Positions 16,373-26,032 are shown, counted from the first letter of the stretch. The stretch is 64,000 nucleotides of DNA from Candidatus Poribacteria bacterium (GCA_963665845.2 OY762492.1:2656001-2720000); one strand, 5' to 3'. The notes: a model not told the origin generated them from the sequence alone. A program made the numbers and translations.

Positions 16373-16729
16373 TCAGTCGTCTCTGCGGCGTCGATCGTCG
16401 TCATCATCATCGTTTCTGCGGCGCCGGTCGTCGTCATCATCGTCGTCTCTGCGGCGCCGGTCGTCGTCATCGTCGTCGTCATCGTCATCGTCATCATCGT
16501 ACCGATCATCGTCGTACCGGTCGTCGTCATCATCGTCATCGTCGCCGCCGCGCCGGTTGTTGTTCCGGTCGTCGTCACCGTCGTCGTAGTACCGGTCGTC
16601 ATCGTATCTGTCATCGTCGTAGCGATCGTCGTACCGGTCGTCGTCCAGATAATAATCGTCGTGGTCTTCGCCGCACGAGACCAAACAGGCGACGCCAAGA
16701 ACTGCCGCCGCAAACATTGCCCACTTCAT
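16373..16729 (-). CDS. Asp/Arg/Tyr-rich low-complexity lipoprotein
   Basis: GGAGG RBS; MKWAMFAAAVLGVACLVS-C lipoprotein signal; then DDDRY repeats and poly-D/RRRR blocks. Confidence 0.75.
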   Translation of the reverse strand: MKWAMFAAAVLGVACLVSCGEDHDDYYLDDDRYDDRYDDDRYDDDRYYDDGDDDRNNNRRGGDDDDDDDDRYDDDRYDDDDDDDDDDDDDRRRRDDDDDDDRRRRNDDDDDDRRRRDD

Positions 16730-16809
16730 GATTGTCCTCCAGAGTTTCCGTTGCGCTGTCTGTATAACATACCGAATCAAAATGCGCAATGCGGGACTTT
16801 AGCGTACCC

Positions 16810-21074: not shown

Positions 21075-21235
21075 TGAACAAAGCCTCTATTCATGGGAAA
21101 ATGCCCCGCTAACCAGGTCGTTTCCCGCTTCCGCGAGGACATGCATTCCCGCCTTTGCGGTGAAACGCGCGGGAATCCATCGGCGCCGCTAAGCGTTTTA
21201 ACCCCCAACCTCCTTTGAAAAGGGCGGGGGGTTTC
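21075..21235. repeat. Mosaic intergenic repeat
   Basis: CTATTCATGGGAAAA, CCGCTTCCGCGAGGACATGCATTCCCG and a long palindrome variant, shared with 45720, 57620 and 62530. Confidence 0.75.
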
Positions 21236-21292: not shown

Positions 21293-21363
21293 GTATGTTG
21301 CCCTTGTATGTTGACCGCGTATGTTGCCCGTGTGTTGCAATGGGCGCGGGCGCGGGTTATGAT
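21293..21363 (+). promoter_or_regulatory. Promoter of the yvcK operon with four upstream direct repeats
   Basis: GT(A/G)TGTTG at 21293, 21306, 21319 and 21330; TTGCAA(21335)-N17-TATGAT(21358). Confidence 0.65.
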
Positions 21364-21402: not shown

Positions 21403-22569
21403 GTGAAACCCTTGAACATCGCGTGTATCGGCGGAGGGACGGGACTCTCCACCCTGCTCCGAGGCTTCCGTCAGTATGCGGCGGCAAATGACGGCGGACC
21501 TTACGACATGGACGGGCTAACTGCGATCGTCTCCGTCTCCGACGACGGAGGCAGCTCCGGCAAGCTGATTGACGAATTCGGCGTCCTTCCCCCAGGCGAC
21601 ATCCGCAACTGCCTCGTCGCGCTCGCCGAAGAGAACGAAACGATGAGCCGTCTTTTTGAGTACCGGTTTGACAGCAACGGCGCTCTGCGCGGACACAGCG
21701 TCGGCAATCTGCTGCTCATCGCGCTCACCGACCTGTTCGGCACGTTTCCGCTCGCCATACGCGAAGCCGCCAGGGTACTTGCGGTGCGCGGGCGCATTCT
21801 CCCGGTGACCGTCGAACAGACGCTCCTGTGCGCCGAGCTGGTGGACGGCGAGATCGTCTGCGGCGAGTCGAACATTCCAGACCGAAGAAACCGCGCCCCG
21901 ATCCGCCGCGTCTTTTTAAAACGCCGACCCGAAAACGGCGCCGATGTGGAGGAGCTTGGAAGCGACTCGATCAAGGCGCATCCGGAGGCGGTCAAGGCGA
22001 TTGTGGAAGCGGACGCGGTCGTCATTGGGCCGGGGAGCCTTTATACCAGCATTCTTCCGAATATCGTTGTGCCTGAAATCGCGGACGCGCTGCGCCAGTC
22101 GAAAGCGCTCAAGGTTTATGTCGGAAACGTCATGATTGAGCCGGGCGAAACGGACGGGTTCTCGCTTTCTGATCATGTGAACGCCGTTCGGCGGCATGGC
22201 GACCTGCGCGTCGATTATGTGCTGGCGAATTCAGGTCTCGCGTCGGACGCGCTGCTGCGGCGGTACTACAAGCAGGCGCAGCAGGCGCAGCGCCCATCGG
22301 ACAACTCCAAACAGTGGACATCGTTCAACGACTTTATGGATCAGATCGACCCGAAGGCGGACCCGCGCGACCCGCCCGAACGCGCGCTTGTGCAGACGCT
22401 TTACCGCCCCGATGTGGACGATGTCTCCCCCGCCGAGATCGTGCAGGAGGATTTGATCAGGGAGGCGGACGTTCAGGAACGGGGCGAGACGCTGCGCGTG
22501 CTGCGCCATCATCCGCTCAAGCTTGCCGCCGCCATCGCGCGCCTGTTTGAGAACCGCTGCGGCAAATGA
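21403..22569 (+). CDS. yvcK: YvcK/GlmR (CofD-like UPF0052) UDP-GlcNAc-binding protein
   Basis: IGGGTGLSTLLRG, DDGGSSG, PPGDIRNC, GHSVGNL, GPGSLYTSILPN, PGETDG; GTG start at 21403. Confidence 0.92.
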   Translation: MKPLNIACIGGGTGLSTLLRGFRQYAAANDGGPYDMDGLTAIVSVSDDGGSSGKLIDEFGVLPPGDIRNCLVALAEENETMSRLFEYRFDSNGALRGHSVGNLLLIALTDLFGTFPLAIREAARVLAVRGRILPVTVEQTLLCAELVDGEIVCGESNIPDRRNRAPIRRVFLKRRPENGADVEELGSDSIKAHPEAVKAIVEADAVVIGPGSLYTSILPNIVVPEIADALRQSKALKVYVGNVMIEPGETDGFSLSDHVNAVRRHGDLRVDYVLANSGLASDALLRRYYKQAQQAQRPSDNSKQWTSFNDFMDQIDPKADPRDPPERALVQTLYRPDVDDVSPAEIVQEDLIREADVQERGETLRVLRHHPLKLAAAIARLFENRCGK

Positions 22570-25031
22570 TGAAGGCGCTGGACGAAGCGTTTGGATTTCC
22601 GCTCACAGAGACGCGCCCCGACATCGCCGAACGGCTTGCCGCCGCGCTTTCAGCCGAAACGCCCCGCCTCTCCGATGAGGAGATACGCCGCCGCCTTTCC
22701 ATTCAATGGGTCGTTCTGGCCGCCGGCAAGGGCAGCCGCATGGATCCGACGGGGCGGTTTAACAAGAACATTGATCTCTGGTTTGGAACGCAGAACGCTC
22801 TTCAGCGTGTTTGCCGCCATCTGCCGGGGACGCTTCCTCCGCTCGCAGTCGTCAGTCCAGCGATGGCGCGGCGCGTTTTAAAAAAAACGGACGGCGGAGA
22901 AACGCTCTCTGGACACATCTCTGGACTCCTGGACGAAGCGCGTCTGGACATCCGTCTTCGAGACCGTCTTTTTGGGAAGGGCGCGCCGCTGGCGGTTCAA
23001 CCGGCGCCGAACGGCCCTGGCGGGGCTGTCATGGCGGCGGAACCGTTTTTGCGCGCGTCTGAAGCGGAGCTGGCGGGCGTTCTTTACGGAGATGAACCGT
23101 TTGCGCCGCCGGACGCGGCGGTTGAAACGCTTGCCGCGTTCATTTGCGAGGGGGCGGACGCGGCGCTCTGCGGAAAGAAACCTGAAACGGTTGTCGGAAA
23201 GGGCGCCGTACTTTTCGACGAGGAGGGGCGGTTCTGCGGAACGCTGGAATGGCGCGACATGACGCCCGAAGAGCAGGAACGCATGCGCGCCCTGCATGAA
23301 ACGAACGACGCCGTCACGAACGCGGGCGTCTCCGTTTTCCGCCGCGAAACGATGCTGGAATTGCTCGGCTCGCTCTGGCTTCACAACGGGGCGGAATATC
23401 ATCATACCGATCTGTTTCGGCTTTTTTATGAGCGCGGTTTCAAAACGCATGCGCACATCTATGAAGGATTTATACCTTCTGGAGTGAACCGCTGGACGAA
23501 CGTTCTGGACGGGGAGGCGGCGCTTTTTGAGCGGGCGCGAAGGCGGCTTGCCGAGGAGGGCGTTCGCGTCTTGCCGGGCGCGCAGGCGCACATTGCACCG
23601 CACATTTCAAACGGAGAAAACAGGGAGAGCGGCGCGGCGTTCGGCGTCGGATGCGCTGTTTCGGGGAGGATCGTTGTCGGGGAAAAATGCGGCATCGGGA
23701 AGTATGTACATCTTTCAGACACCGTTTTAGAAGGCGAAACCAGCGTCGGCGACCGGGCGCGCGTCCGCGATTCAAGGCTGCGGAACGCCGCCGTGGACGC
23801 ATGCGACGACGGATCGCCGGTCGGCGCCGCCGTCAACCTGCTGCATACGCTGACAAACATCGACGGCTGCGCGCTTGAGAATGTTGTCGTCGGGCGGGGC
23901 TGCCGGCTTCAGAACGTTCAGGCGCGTTTTACGGTTCTGCCGCCGAATCTGCGTTTGCGGAATCGGCGCCTCGGCGTTTGGCGCGACCCGTCGCTTGGGC
24001 TGCCGTATGAGGAAACGCCGGCGCTCTACCGACTCGTCCCGGAGAGTTATCTGCCGGGCGTGTTCACCTTCGCCGACCGGAAGCATGAGCCTGACTGGGA
24101 GAAGCTGCGGGCGCATGTTCGGCGCATGTCGGTCGAAGAGCTGGCGCCGCGCCTCTCTCGAAGCGAAGAGACGCGGCGCGTTTTCATCCGCTGCGTTCAT
24201 CAGCTTCTGGACGCGCAGTTTGAGGGTCGACATCTCATCGACCCGTTGACGCCGGAGGAGCTGTGGGGGGTTCTGTATGAGCTGGCGCGGCTATGTTCAG
24301 GCAACCCCGATCCGTACGCCGCTGAAAAGCGCGCTTCCCGAAACGAAGCGGAGCGGCTTTTCAACCAAATGAACGGGCGGGGCATGGAATGGGAGCCGCT
24401 GCTGCGCGCCGCGGCCGCCGCCAACCTGATCGATTACAGCAGCGCGCGTATGACCGCCGCGATGCGCCTTAACCCAAACCTGCTCGCCGAAACGCTGGAA
24501 GAGGCGCAATCCAGACCCTTCGCCATCGACTCTTTCAAGGCGTTTGAACGGCTGCTGTTGAGCGGGGAGAAGCGGCGCGTTCTCTTGTTGACCGACAACG
24601 ACGGCGAGATCGTGTTCGATATAGAAATGGCGCGTCGGCTTGCGGCGGAGGGGCATCATGTTGAGATCGCCGCCCGTTCGTCCGCCGCCGGCAACGACAT
24701 GACAGCGTCCGATTTATCGGTTATACTGGGCGGGATGGACCTTCATATCGGCGTTATGGGCAGCGGCTCGCGTACGGCTGGAACAAACCTGTTTCAGGCG
24801 TCCGCCCGTTTTGCGCATGCGCTTCAAGAGGCGGACGTCGTCGTCTCAAAGGGGCAGGGAAACTGGTACACGACGCAGGGGCTGCGCAAGGACAGGTTTT
24901 ACATGCTGATGTCGAAGGGTATGACAGCGGAGCGGACGACCGGCGTTTCGGCGGAGGGGTTGATACTGGCGCATCTGTCCGCCGGCGCGGAGGGCGGTCG
25001 TCCGCTCATCGAAACTGCCCAGAACGAATAA
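22566..25031 (+). CDS. Fusion of a GlmU-like nucleotidyltransferase, a short left-handed beta-helix and a DUF89/ARMT1-like phosphatase
   Basis: N-terminal LAAGKGSRM, LYGDEP, NAG, EYHHTD, GVN; C-terminal DPYAAEK, ANLIDY, DNDGE, NDMT, SKGQGN. Confidence 0.8.
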   Translation: MMKALDEAFGFPLTETRPDIAERLAAALSAETPRLSDEEIRRRLSIQWVVLAAGKGSRMDPTGRFNKNIDLWFGTQNALQRVCRHLPGTLPPLAVVSPAMARRVLKKTDGGETLSGHISGLLDEARLDIRLRDRLFGKGAPLAVQPAPNGPGGAVMAAEPFLRASEAELAGVLYGDEPFAPPDAAVETLAAFICEGADAALCGKKPETVVGKGAVLFDEEGRFCGTLEWRDMTPEEQERMRALHETNDAVTNAGVSVFRRETMLELLGSLWLHNGAEYHHTDLFRLFYERGFKTHAHIYEGFIPSGVNRWTNVLDGEAALFERARRRLAEEGVRVLPGAQAHIAPHISNGENRESGAAFGVGCAVSGRIVVGEKCGIGKYVHLSDTVLEGETSVGDRARVRDSRLRNAAVDACDDGSPVGAAVNLLHTLTNIDGCALENVVVGRGCRLQNVQARFTVLPPNLRLRNRRLGVWRDPSLGLPYEETPALYRLVPESYLPGVFTFADRKHEPDWEKLRAHVRRMSVEELAPRLSRSEETRRVFIRCVHQLLDAQFEGRHLIDPLTPEELWGVLYELARLCSGNPDPYAAEKRASRNEAERLFNQMNGRGMEWEPLLRAAAAANLIDYSSARMTAAMRLNPNLLAETLEEAQSRPFAIDSFKAFERLLLSGEKRRVLLLTDNDGEIVFDIEMARRLAAEGHHVEIAARSSAAGNDMTASDLSVILGGMDLHIGVMGSGSRTAGTNLFQASARFAHALQEADVVVSKGQGNWYTTQGLRKDRFYMLMSKGMTAERTTGVSAEGLILAHLSAGAEGGRPLIETAQNE

Positions 25032-25049
25032 ACGAAGAGGAGTGAACGC

Positions 25050-25838
25050 ATGGAGGTGGTCGTCGCGCCGGACGTGGATCAATTCGCCGCGAACTGGCTT
25101 GTGGAGCAATGGGATGAGATCAGCGCCCTTGGGCTGGCGACCGGCTCCACCCCTGAAAATTTATACGGCTGGCTCATTCAGCGGTATTACGACGGCGACA
25201 TCTGTTTTGCAGACATGAACACATTTAACCTGGACGAGTACCTGTCGCTGGCGCCGAATCATCCGCAGAGTTACAGGGCGACGATTCACCGCCAGCTGAT
25301 TCAGTATGTGGACCTGAAGCCTGAAAATTTTCATGTGCCGCCGGGTTTGACGAACGATGTGGAGGCGGCGTGCGAAGCGTATGAGGACGCCATCGCGGTC
25401 GCGGGCGGCGTTGATGTGTGGATACTCGGCATCGGGCATGAGGGGCATATCGCGTTCAACGAGGCGCCGAGCGAGAAGGAGACGCGCACCCGGCTTGTGG
25501 ACCTGTCGGACAGCACCTTATACCATAACGCGCGCTTTTTCGACAACGATCTTTACCGCGTCCCGAAGCAGGCGATCACCGTCGGCGTGGCAACCATTTT
25601 AGAGGCGCGGAAGCTGCTGCTTCTGGCTAAAGGGGACGCGAAGGCGAAGCCCGTCGCGGACGCGGTGATGGGAAATCAGACGGAGAATTTAGCGGCGTCT
25701 TGGCTCCAAAGCCATGAGGCATGCGTCGTCGCGCTTGACCATGCGGCGGCGTCGGAGCTGCTGACGCGGGCGCCGGCAGGCGAGTCGGTCATCGAGAGCG
25801 CGGACGGGATACGGCATACGATCACCTTCGCCGCCTAA
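25050..25838 (+). CDS. nagB: Glucosamine-6-phosphate deaminase
   Basis: LGLATGSTP, TFNLDEY, HPQSY, LGIGHEGHIAFNE, VPKQAITVG. Confidence 0.92.
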   Translation: MEVVVAPDVDQFAANWLVEQWDEISALGLATGSTPENLYGWLIQRYYDGDICFADMNTFNLDEYLSLAPNHPQSYRATIHRQLIQYVDLKPENFHVPPGLTNDVEAACEAYEDAIAVAGGVDVWILGIGHEGHIAFNEAPSEKETRTRLVDLSDSTLYHNARFFDNDLYRVPKQAITVGVATILEARKLLLLAKGDAKAKPVADAVMGNQTENLAASWLQSHEACVVALDHAAASELLTRAPAGESVIESADGIRHTITFAA

Positions 25839-25859
25839 GGAAGCGTCCGCGCCGCTATT

Positions 25860-26032
25860 CGTCCCCCGCTCTCCGCGAGGACATGCATTCCGGGCGCGGC
25901 TAAAACCCCCCCAGCCCCCCTTTTCAAGGGGGGAGTCTAGAAACCCGCGCGATCCGCCGTCATCGGGCGGATCGTCATTCCCGCGCAAGCGGGAATCCAG
26001 AGTTCTCTCAGACAGCCTCCGCATTCCAAAAG
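25860..26032. repeat. Mosaic intergenic repeat
   Basis: CCGCGAGGACATGCATTCC; CTAAAACCCCCCCAGCCCCCTTTTCAAGGGGGGAGTCTAG; GTCATTCCCGCGCAAGCGGGAATCCAGAG; CAGCCTCCGCATTCCAAAA. Confidence 0.85.

Follow-up and report, generated by a model that had tools for sequence, protein, structure and literature searches.

GlmU is a bifunctional enzyme (TIGR01173; PDB 2oi6, 9dr4, 2qkx) that combines a pyrophosphorylase with an acetyltransferase; it is generally regarded as essential, and a catalogue of alternatives to it has only begun to take shape (bioRxiv 2026.06.23.733835). Ccan_15070 of C. canimorsus (PMC4358021) and NagU of S. aureus (a PF01704 protein; bioRxiv 2026.06.23.733835) are uridyltransferases without an acetyltransferase, and the available text of these sources describes no phosphatase domain in either. 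YvcK/GlmR has been reported to be a GlcNAc-1-P uridyltransferase (PMC10128056) with a catalytic pair of consecutive aspartates (PMC10128056, PMC13046274), while PanK-DUF89 fusions (AtPANK2, HsPANK4) join a biosynthetic enzyme to a DUF89 domain and reportedly dephosphorylate intermediates of their own pathway (bioRxiv 2026.09.29.755255). Here, we describe an operon within a 64,000 nt stretch of a Candidatus Poribacteria genome (GCA_963665845.2, OY762492.1:2656001-2720000; the whole stretch is referred to as the window), in which a gene fusing a GlmU-type pyrophosphorylase to a DUF89 domain lies between yvcK/glmR and nagB (window positions 21403..25838). Activities and substrates are inferred from domains, residues, gene content and gene order, and a role in the supply of UDP-GlcNAc is probable. 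The fusion shares with bifunctional GlmU the pyrophosphorylase fold and motifs, the helical arm and the first beta-helix coils, but it has no acetyltransferase region, carries DUF89 there instead, and shows a 44-residue N-terminal extension and an altered sugar pocket. As proposed for this protein, a biosynthetic enzyme would be paired with a DUF89 domain acting on its own pathway, as in the PanK fusions, except that the DUF89 partner is a nucleotidyltransferase.

All three genes are on the plus strand: yvcK/glmR (21403-22569, GTG start, 388 aa), the fusion (22566-25031, 821 aa) and nagB, encoding glucosamine-6-phosphate deaminase (25050-25838, 262 aa). The first two meet in an ATGA overlap and 18 bp separate the fusion from nagB, which bears out the tightly coupled operon described in the initial annotation, and the three-gene operon is real. 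That annotation had allowed for an assembly artefact or a lost stop codon, and both are ruled out, since the frame is open over its full length in most of 146 genomes and contigs span the locus. In runs X4 and X6 the operon is covered by single contigs with zero letter differences, although the two runs belong to one study, possibly of the source sample itself, and are not independent support. In two RNA libraries, contigs of related strains match each of the three genes in part and link the 3' end of the fusion to nagB, with none crossing the transferase-DUF89 junction; they prove neither a single transcript nor a level of expression.

The pyrophosphorylase domain, a predicted sugar-1-phosphate uridyltransferase, occupies 22698..23525 (+, about residues 45-320), and contains all of the GlmU motifs that had been read in it (LAAGKGSRM..K, LYGD, NAG, EY..TD, GVN). 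It is followed by a truncated left-handed beta-helix (23526..23975, +, about residues 321-470), which has none of the acetyltransferase motifs of GlmU and probably serves as a structural stalk. Both NCBIfam and the structural comparison rank GlmU first for the pyrophosphorylase part, but the score against TIGR01173 (71.2 bits over residues 138-407) is below the cut-off of 366.85, as is that against archaeal GlmU (TIGR03992, 25.9 bits, cut-off 292), and the family scans listed no match to TIGR03991 (alternative GlmU) or PF01704. PF12804 matches residues 49-203, and hhalign aligns the N-domain with GlmU at a probability of 98.9. In an alignment of 68 rows, redundant in that several genomes contribute more than one, residues R58, K67, Q145, G150, D176, G213, E228, N252, E277, D282 and N308 are kept in 66-68. 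A profile built from five GlmU sequences matched the N-domain in 67 rows and the first beta-helix coils in 61, while its acetyltransferase region matched none (0/68), in agreement with the earlier remark that an HLSY motif is lacking. Neither HL[STA]Y nor N[YF]DG occurs in any of the 68 rows, whereas the five reference GlmUs have NYDG in all cases and HLxY in four. The AlphaFold model (mean pLDDT 78, pTM 0.50, low confidence in the beta-helix) superposes on GlmU over about residues 44-475 with Z 23-24 and an rmsd of 9-10 Å across both subdomains; the structural matches stop at about residue 380-390 of the ~450 residues of GlmU, and GlmU (Z 24.2) ranks above GalU (Z 21.9). Folded as a single sequence, the beta-helix reached a pLDDT of 34, too low for that fold to be of use. 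The protein likely works like a monofunctional GlmU, outside the bifunctional family.

The C-terminal part is a DUF89/ARMT1-like domain (24060..25025, +, about residues 499-820), a member of that family by domain, fold and residues. PF01937 matches residues 568-777 (E 9.5e-29) and the fusion scores 101 bits against a cut-off of 25, which settles in the affirmative whether DUF89 is present at all; the score against NF040824 is 80.9, below the cut-off of 440. The closest structure is archaeal PH1575 (2g8l; Z 29.9, rmsd 3.0 Å over 282 residues), which belongs, with AF1104, to subfamily I, whose fold and catalytic motifs are those of the fusion. All DUF89 motifs named in the initial annotation (DPY..EK, N.ID, DNDGE, ND, KGQGN) are in the translation, and N620, D623, D677, N678, D711 and K784 are kept in 62-66 of the 68 rows. 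The nucleophile pair D677-N678, the metal aspartate D711, the lid residues N620 and D623 and the phosphate lysine K784 align with PH1575, with roles assigned by motif from Duf8901 rather than by residue-level structural alignment. Both metal and phosphate ligands are intact, and we expect the domain to work as a metal-dependent phosphatase.

YvcK scores 304 bits against TIGR01826 (cut-off 196) and has the aspartate pair (Asp47-Asp48), which is invariant in 12/12 aligned YvcK rows. It differs from described GlmR proteins in a C-terminal insertion (22267..22386, +, about residues 289-328) that is variable among Poribacteria; also, its GlmS partner was not found in this genome, and in most relatives the gene lies behind an archaeal-type glmM. 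The alignment to YvcK of the PDB ends at residue 293. The insertion was described as Q/P-rich; it is real, but this composition (6 Q and 5 P among 40 residues) is not its defining feature, since seven of the twelve aligned proteins have a longer one that is not Q/P-rich. NagB scores 244.9 bits against TIGR00502 (cut-off 236.9), and its gene is the sole nagB copy found in the genome. A second proposal of the initial annotation, that a CofC/CofD-like route of activation, transfer and dephosphorylation makes an amino-sugar metabolite, has hardly any probability left. It can point to a 3338-aa protein joining NTP-transferase, GalK, two DUF89 and CofD-family domains, and to two further proteins joining CofD-family and DUF89 domains, but this YvcK is a typical TIGR01826 member with a known activity, scores only 34.7 bits against the F420 CofD equivalog (TIGR01819, cut-off 257; CofD was the one F420 gene searched for), and tracks glmM (33/41 genomes) more than the fusion, which it adjoins in 9/37. 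A simpler gap, the supply of UDP-GlcNAc, explains the genes.

That gap is seen in the gene content of the genome (G000). MurA and LpxA-like and LpxD-like ORFs (the latter read by eye) consume UDP-GlcNAc, so that a supply is needed. No canonical, alternative or archaeal GlmU and no NagU scored above cut-off elsewhere in the genome, the best GlmU match being the fusion itself, and GlmS was not found, which answers the call for a check of separate glmU and glmS genes. The other NTP_transferase matches resemble GlgC, ManC and GalU, plus one further protein. Since the genome has no other recognizable GlmU, NagU or GlmS, the operon looks like the core UDP-GlcNAc supply, a point missed by the initial annotation. 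Genes that could feed it are present: an archaeal-type GlmM above cut-off, about 79 kb from the operon and 3' of glgC, two NagA-like genes (one above cut-off), MurQ and three ROK kinases. The MurQ at L218:6077-7510 has an extra N-terminal region of ~180 residues without an NCBIfam match. Neither a free GlmU-type beta-helix acetyltransferase nor a GalK-type or APH-family kinase was found in the genome.

The same situation extends across relatives. Canonical GlmU above cut-off is found in 0/41 genomes as against 9/14 controls, alternative GlmU in 5/41 and NagU in 6/41; the fusion is carried by 37/41, including 28 of the 30 that lack all three of these, and GlmR/YvcK is present in 40/41. Among genomes of the same class, 146/148 have fusion homologues, nearly always single, with a few copies split or cut by contig ends, while 0/3 genomes of other classes had a full copy. 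All named homologues are Poribacteria, and a pattern scan of GTDB contigs gave near-full-length matches only in Poribacteria or unclassified sequences, among the matches listed. A profile search of 1.84 billion representatives returned distant proteins with the same domain order (e.g., P0067 and P0078, without a taxon label), so the architecture is not strictly limited to the close family; at six metagenome loci of such distant fusions, none of yvcK, nagA, nagB, glmM and glmS lay nearby, giving no support for a shared operon. A distant family of NTP-transferase/beta-helix proteins occurs with DUF89 in L212-L214 and without it in L215-L217. Gene order is conserved in part. Counted from the glmM and yvcK position lists, glmM is directly 5' of yvcK in 33/41 genomes, but yvcK adjoins the fusion in only 9/37 fusion-bearing genomes (all eight of family f1, and G011). 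The order glmM-yvcK-fusion is found in G003-G007 and G011, followed by nagB in G003, G005, G006 and G007 and by nagA in G011. Within f1, glgC lies 5' of the mutase gene and nagB is 3' of the fusion in 7/8 genomes, the contig of G004 ending inside the fusion; outside f1 and G011 the neighbors of the fusion are varied and unrelated.

We tentatively favor a reading in which the fusion is the main GlcNAc-1-P uridyltransferase and the operon a salvage branch point to UDP-GlcNAc, with DUF89 most likely removing sugar-phosphates. Scavenged GlcNAc or MurNAc would enter as GlcNAc-6-P via the ROK kinases and MurQ, the archaeal-type GlmM would shift its phosphate to C1, and the fusion would turn the product into UDP-GlcNAc with support from YvcK/GlmR, while NagA and NagB would route surplus to fructose-6-P. 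At this node DUF89 would most likely clear surplus or wrong sugar-phosphates. A published counterpart is C. canimorsus, whose reported GlcNAc auxotrophy goes together with a monofunctional uridyltransferase (PMC4358021). Whether the sugar is salvaged or made de novo is a question separate from the role of DUF89, and our degrees of confidence in the two overlap.

For DUF89, a valve or proofreader for sugar-phosphates is a possible role that falls a little short of even likelihood; it is preferred because of the analogy with PanK-DUF89 fusions and because the shared mutase probably yields glucose-1-P as well, a reported inhibitor of GlmU (PMC12345230). The architecture and amino-sugar context of the flux switch or proofreading function put forward in the initial annotation hold, and the function itself remains the leading guess. 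A close second to the valve, although in itself unlikely, is that the uridyltransferase is the same and DUF89 is a tethered pyrophosphatase that destroys PPi and pulls the reversible reaction forward. DUF89 proteins of fission yeast and human are reported to hydrolyze PPi (PMC9062747), but that activity is known for subfamily III and this domain resembles subfamily I. The genome encodes a membrane-bound H+-pyrophosphatase and a single soluble pyrophosphatase-family match (L069, G000:C1:3830450-3830869; 73.5 bits, acidic repeat tail), in which the customary Asp-rich motif seems to be absent. Counting against a PPi pull, canonical GlmU is not known to need a tethered pyrophosphatase, and the model (pTM 0.50) leaves the distance between the two active sites unfixed.

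The GalK-type kinases of relatives bear on a further suggestion. In five genomes of families f3, f4, f5 and f7, a second fusion of about 800-900 aa joins a GalK-type kinase to a GlmU-like N-domain (L086:6765-9149 in G011, where it adjoins nagB; L241-L244 in G009, G013, G014 and G010), and may be a one-chain HexNAc salvage enzyme. All three genomes in which the DUF89 domain has decayed (G009, G011, G013) carry this protein plus an alternative GlmU. Together with the lack of a GalK-type or APH-type kinase in the present genome and the covalent aspartyl-phosphate reported for DUF89 enzymes (PMC9062747), this would suit a DUF89 domain that is a phosphotransferase or mutase, its aspartyl-phosphate being charged by PPi or GlcNAc-6-P and passed to C1 of GlcNAc, so that one chain makes and uses GlcNAc-1-P. 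We consider this very unlikely: the correlation comes from two families only, GlmM is present, G063, which has an alternative GlmU, and the GlmS clade both retain intact DUF89 motifs, and a transferase activity of DUF89 was not found in the literature consulted. Just as slight is the chance that most Poribacteria are unable to make amino sugars and DUF89 recaptures the released PPi, the fusion alone turning GlcNAc or GlcNAc-6-P plus UTP into UDP-GlcNAc; if true, DUF89 would be a biosynthetic phosphotransferase on a GlcNAc-1-P route that was not found in the literature consulted.

The question of salvage or de novo synthesis was approached through the distribution of glmS and nagB. Exactly one of the two is present in 41/41 genomes, and this complementarity was recorded as a prediction and then tested on 151 genomes (35 shared), of which 149 have exactly one, one has both and one neither. 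In the larger set, glmS occurs in 36 genomes and nagB in 115 (112 above cut-off), and nagA is present in every one of the 115 genomes without glmS and in just 6 of the 36 that have it. The pattern was rejected as strong statistics because the f2 and f6 genomes that have glmS fall into a single clade of the fusion tree (support 97; a quick tree of 24 rows, with G003, G004, G006 and G013 left out as partial), implying only one or two evolutionary events. We read it as two strategies: genomes with nagA and nagB but lacking glmS would live by salvage, and one clade would synthesize amino sugar for itself, in most cases having a free acetyltransferase candidate encoded next to glmS. Salvage is somewhat the better-supported route for this lineage, and we put the chance that lineages f1 and f8, which are without glmS, are amino-sugar auxotrophs at slightly below even.

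The glmS/nagB pattern also suggests functional replacement, and an alternative scheme has NagB running in reverse (fructose-6-P plus ammonia) in place of GlmS, followed by an unrecognized acetylase and lastly the fusion, which fits either role of DUF89. Several glmS-less genomes, against a clean two-strategy split, keep an alternative GlmU near nagB (at most two genes away in G009, G011, G013, G016 and G063), which fits NagB running backwards there, and in G023 and G045 the order is glmM-yvcK-glmS, with glmS 3' of yvcK. Mammalian deaminases are reported to be reversible (PMC10138107), and C. canimorsus, for which no GlmS was identified, reportedly managed with GlmM and an acetyltransferase (PMC4358021). 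On the other side, the single clade reduces the replacement to one event, plus G004 (61% complete), and nagA is gone along with nagB in 30 of the 36 glmS genomes, as loss of catabolism predicts. No acetyltransferase was identified in this genome, and no direct bacterial precedent for NagB replacing GlmS was found in the literature, leaving this scheme doubtful. The nagB gene clusters with phosphotransacetylase in G009, G011, G041 and G042 (L086:2399-6756, L088, L232, L233), with acetate kinase too in G011 and alternative GlmU too in G009 and G011.

Several observations weigh against the salvage branch point. The assembly, of 3 contigs, has a completeness of 90%, and two GNAT proteins encoded in it have no assigned role, the acetyltransferase search having covered the GlmU type rather than GNATs. 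In three g15 genomes with GlmS, the acetyltransferase type seen beside glmS elsewhere was not found; an unrecognized acetyltransferase thus probably exists in the phylum and could be present here, which weakens the case for auxotrophy. These three genomes also speak against a clean division into the two strategies. The action of GlmM on GlcNAc-6-P is assumed, and the published inhibition by glucose-1-P targets the acetyltransferase half of GlmU, which the fusion does not have. The DUF89 catalytic residues are lost in G009, G011 and G013, and also in P0028; judged from this decay, some lineages can do without DUF89 activity. Only family f1 has the three-gene operon. Family f2 has an intact fusion together with GlmS, a free beta-helix acetyltransferase candidate and NagU, and since these coexist the fusion is not merely a gap-filler. 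Lastly, the sugar pocket is altered relative to GlmU (EY/LHHxD for EYYLTD, EW for EEK, KG for YGR), and because of these changes the sugar substrate may differ.

A different sugar is the basis of another explanation, in which GlmR makes UDP-GlcNAc and the fusion activates some other sugar-1-phosphate, e.g., GlcN-1-P or GalNAc-1-P. GlmR, a published uridyltransferase (PMC10128056), is nearly universal in these genomes, His279/His280 and Trp229 in the pocket are lineage-specific, and the fusion persists next to NagU in f2 and stands alone in most genomes. However, natively regulated GlmR is reported to have failed to replace GlmU and NagU in S. aureus (bioRxiv 2026.06.23.733835), and where the fusion has operon partners these are glmM, glmR, nagA or nagB. 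We regard this explanation as improbable.

Descriptions of the fusion were not found in the literature on DUF89, phosphatase fusions or Poribacteria, in a search that did not extend to the paper defining DUF89 or to bioRxiv supplements; no literature joining Poribacteria with glmU was found either, and a preprint on giant proteins of Omnitrophota does not mention DUF89 in its accessible text (bioRxiv 2026.06.07.730766). The architecture is common in its class, yet uncharacterized as far as the literature was searched, and would be a variant of UDP-GlcNAc supply conserved across the class. If the salvage branch point is correct, it adds another GlmU alternative, in nearly all sampled genomes of one bacterial class. 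With a subfamily I-type DUF89 tied to a single enzyme, only a few compounds are left as candidates for its physiological substrate. From the gene content, many of these Candidatus bacteria are also predicted to require GlcNAc or MurNAc from outside; adding these would be a cheap change of cultivation medium and, if the prediction is right, a lead for growth.

Several minor features were seen around the operon and in relatives. A sigma-70-like promoter candidate (21335..21363, +), identified by consensus match only, ends 40 bp 5' of the yvcK start; it agrees at 9/12 consensus positions (2 sites vs 0.8 expected in shuffles) and its -10 region is retained in G001. A direct repeat 5' of yvcK was dismissed as an operator, as G001 has one copy only and the second is probably a strain duplication. 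Short dispersed repeats border the operon (window 21100-21200 and 25850-26010), the pieces having 257 and 1325 BLAST matches in the genome and very high depth. The minus strand at window 16373-16789 encodes a 138-aa ORF with Asp/Arg-rich low-complexity repeats after a lipoprotein-like leader. Three candidates from relatives were rejected: a conserved 260-aa gene 5' of glmM as an acetyltransferase (membrane protein-like, weakly similar to ABC-2 permeases, and not detected in this genome), the two genes 5' of glmM as cdaA-cdaR (a TPR protein and one with no Pfam match), and g15 nucleotidyltransferases of about 350 aa as GlmU (best match long RmlA, below all cut-offs). Giant proteins P0062, P0112, P0124 and P0144 join DUF89 with NTP-transferase, GalK, CofD-family or ROK domains, and a TPR/HEAT protein and a membrane protein are encoded 5' of glmM-yvcK in f2, f6 and f8 (L078:6285-7759, L083-L085, L093, L234).

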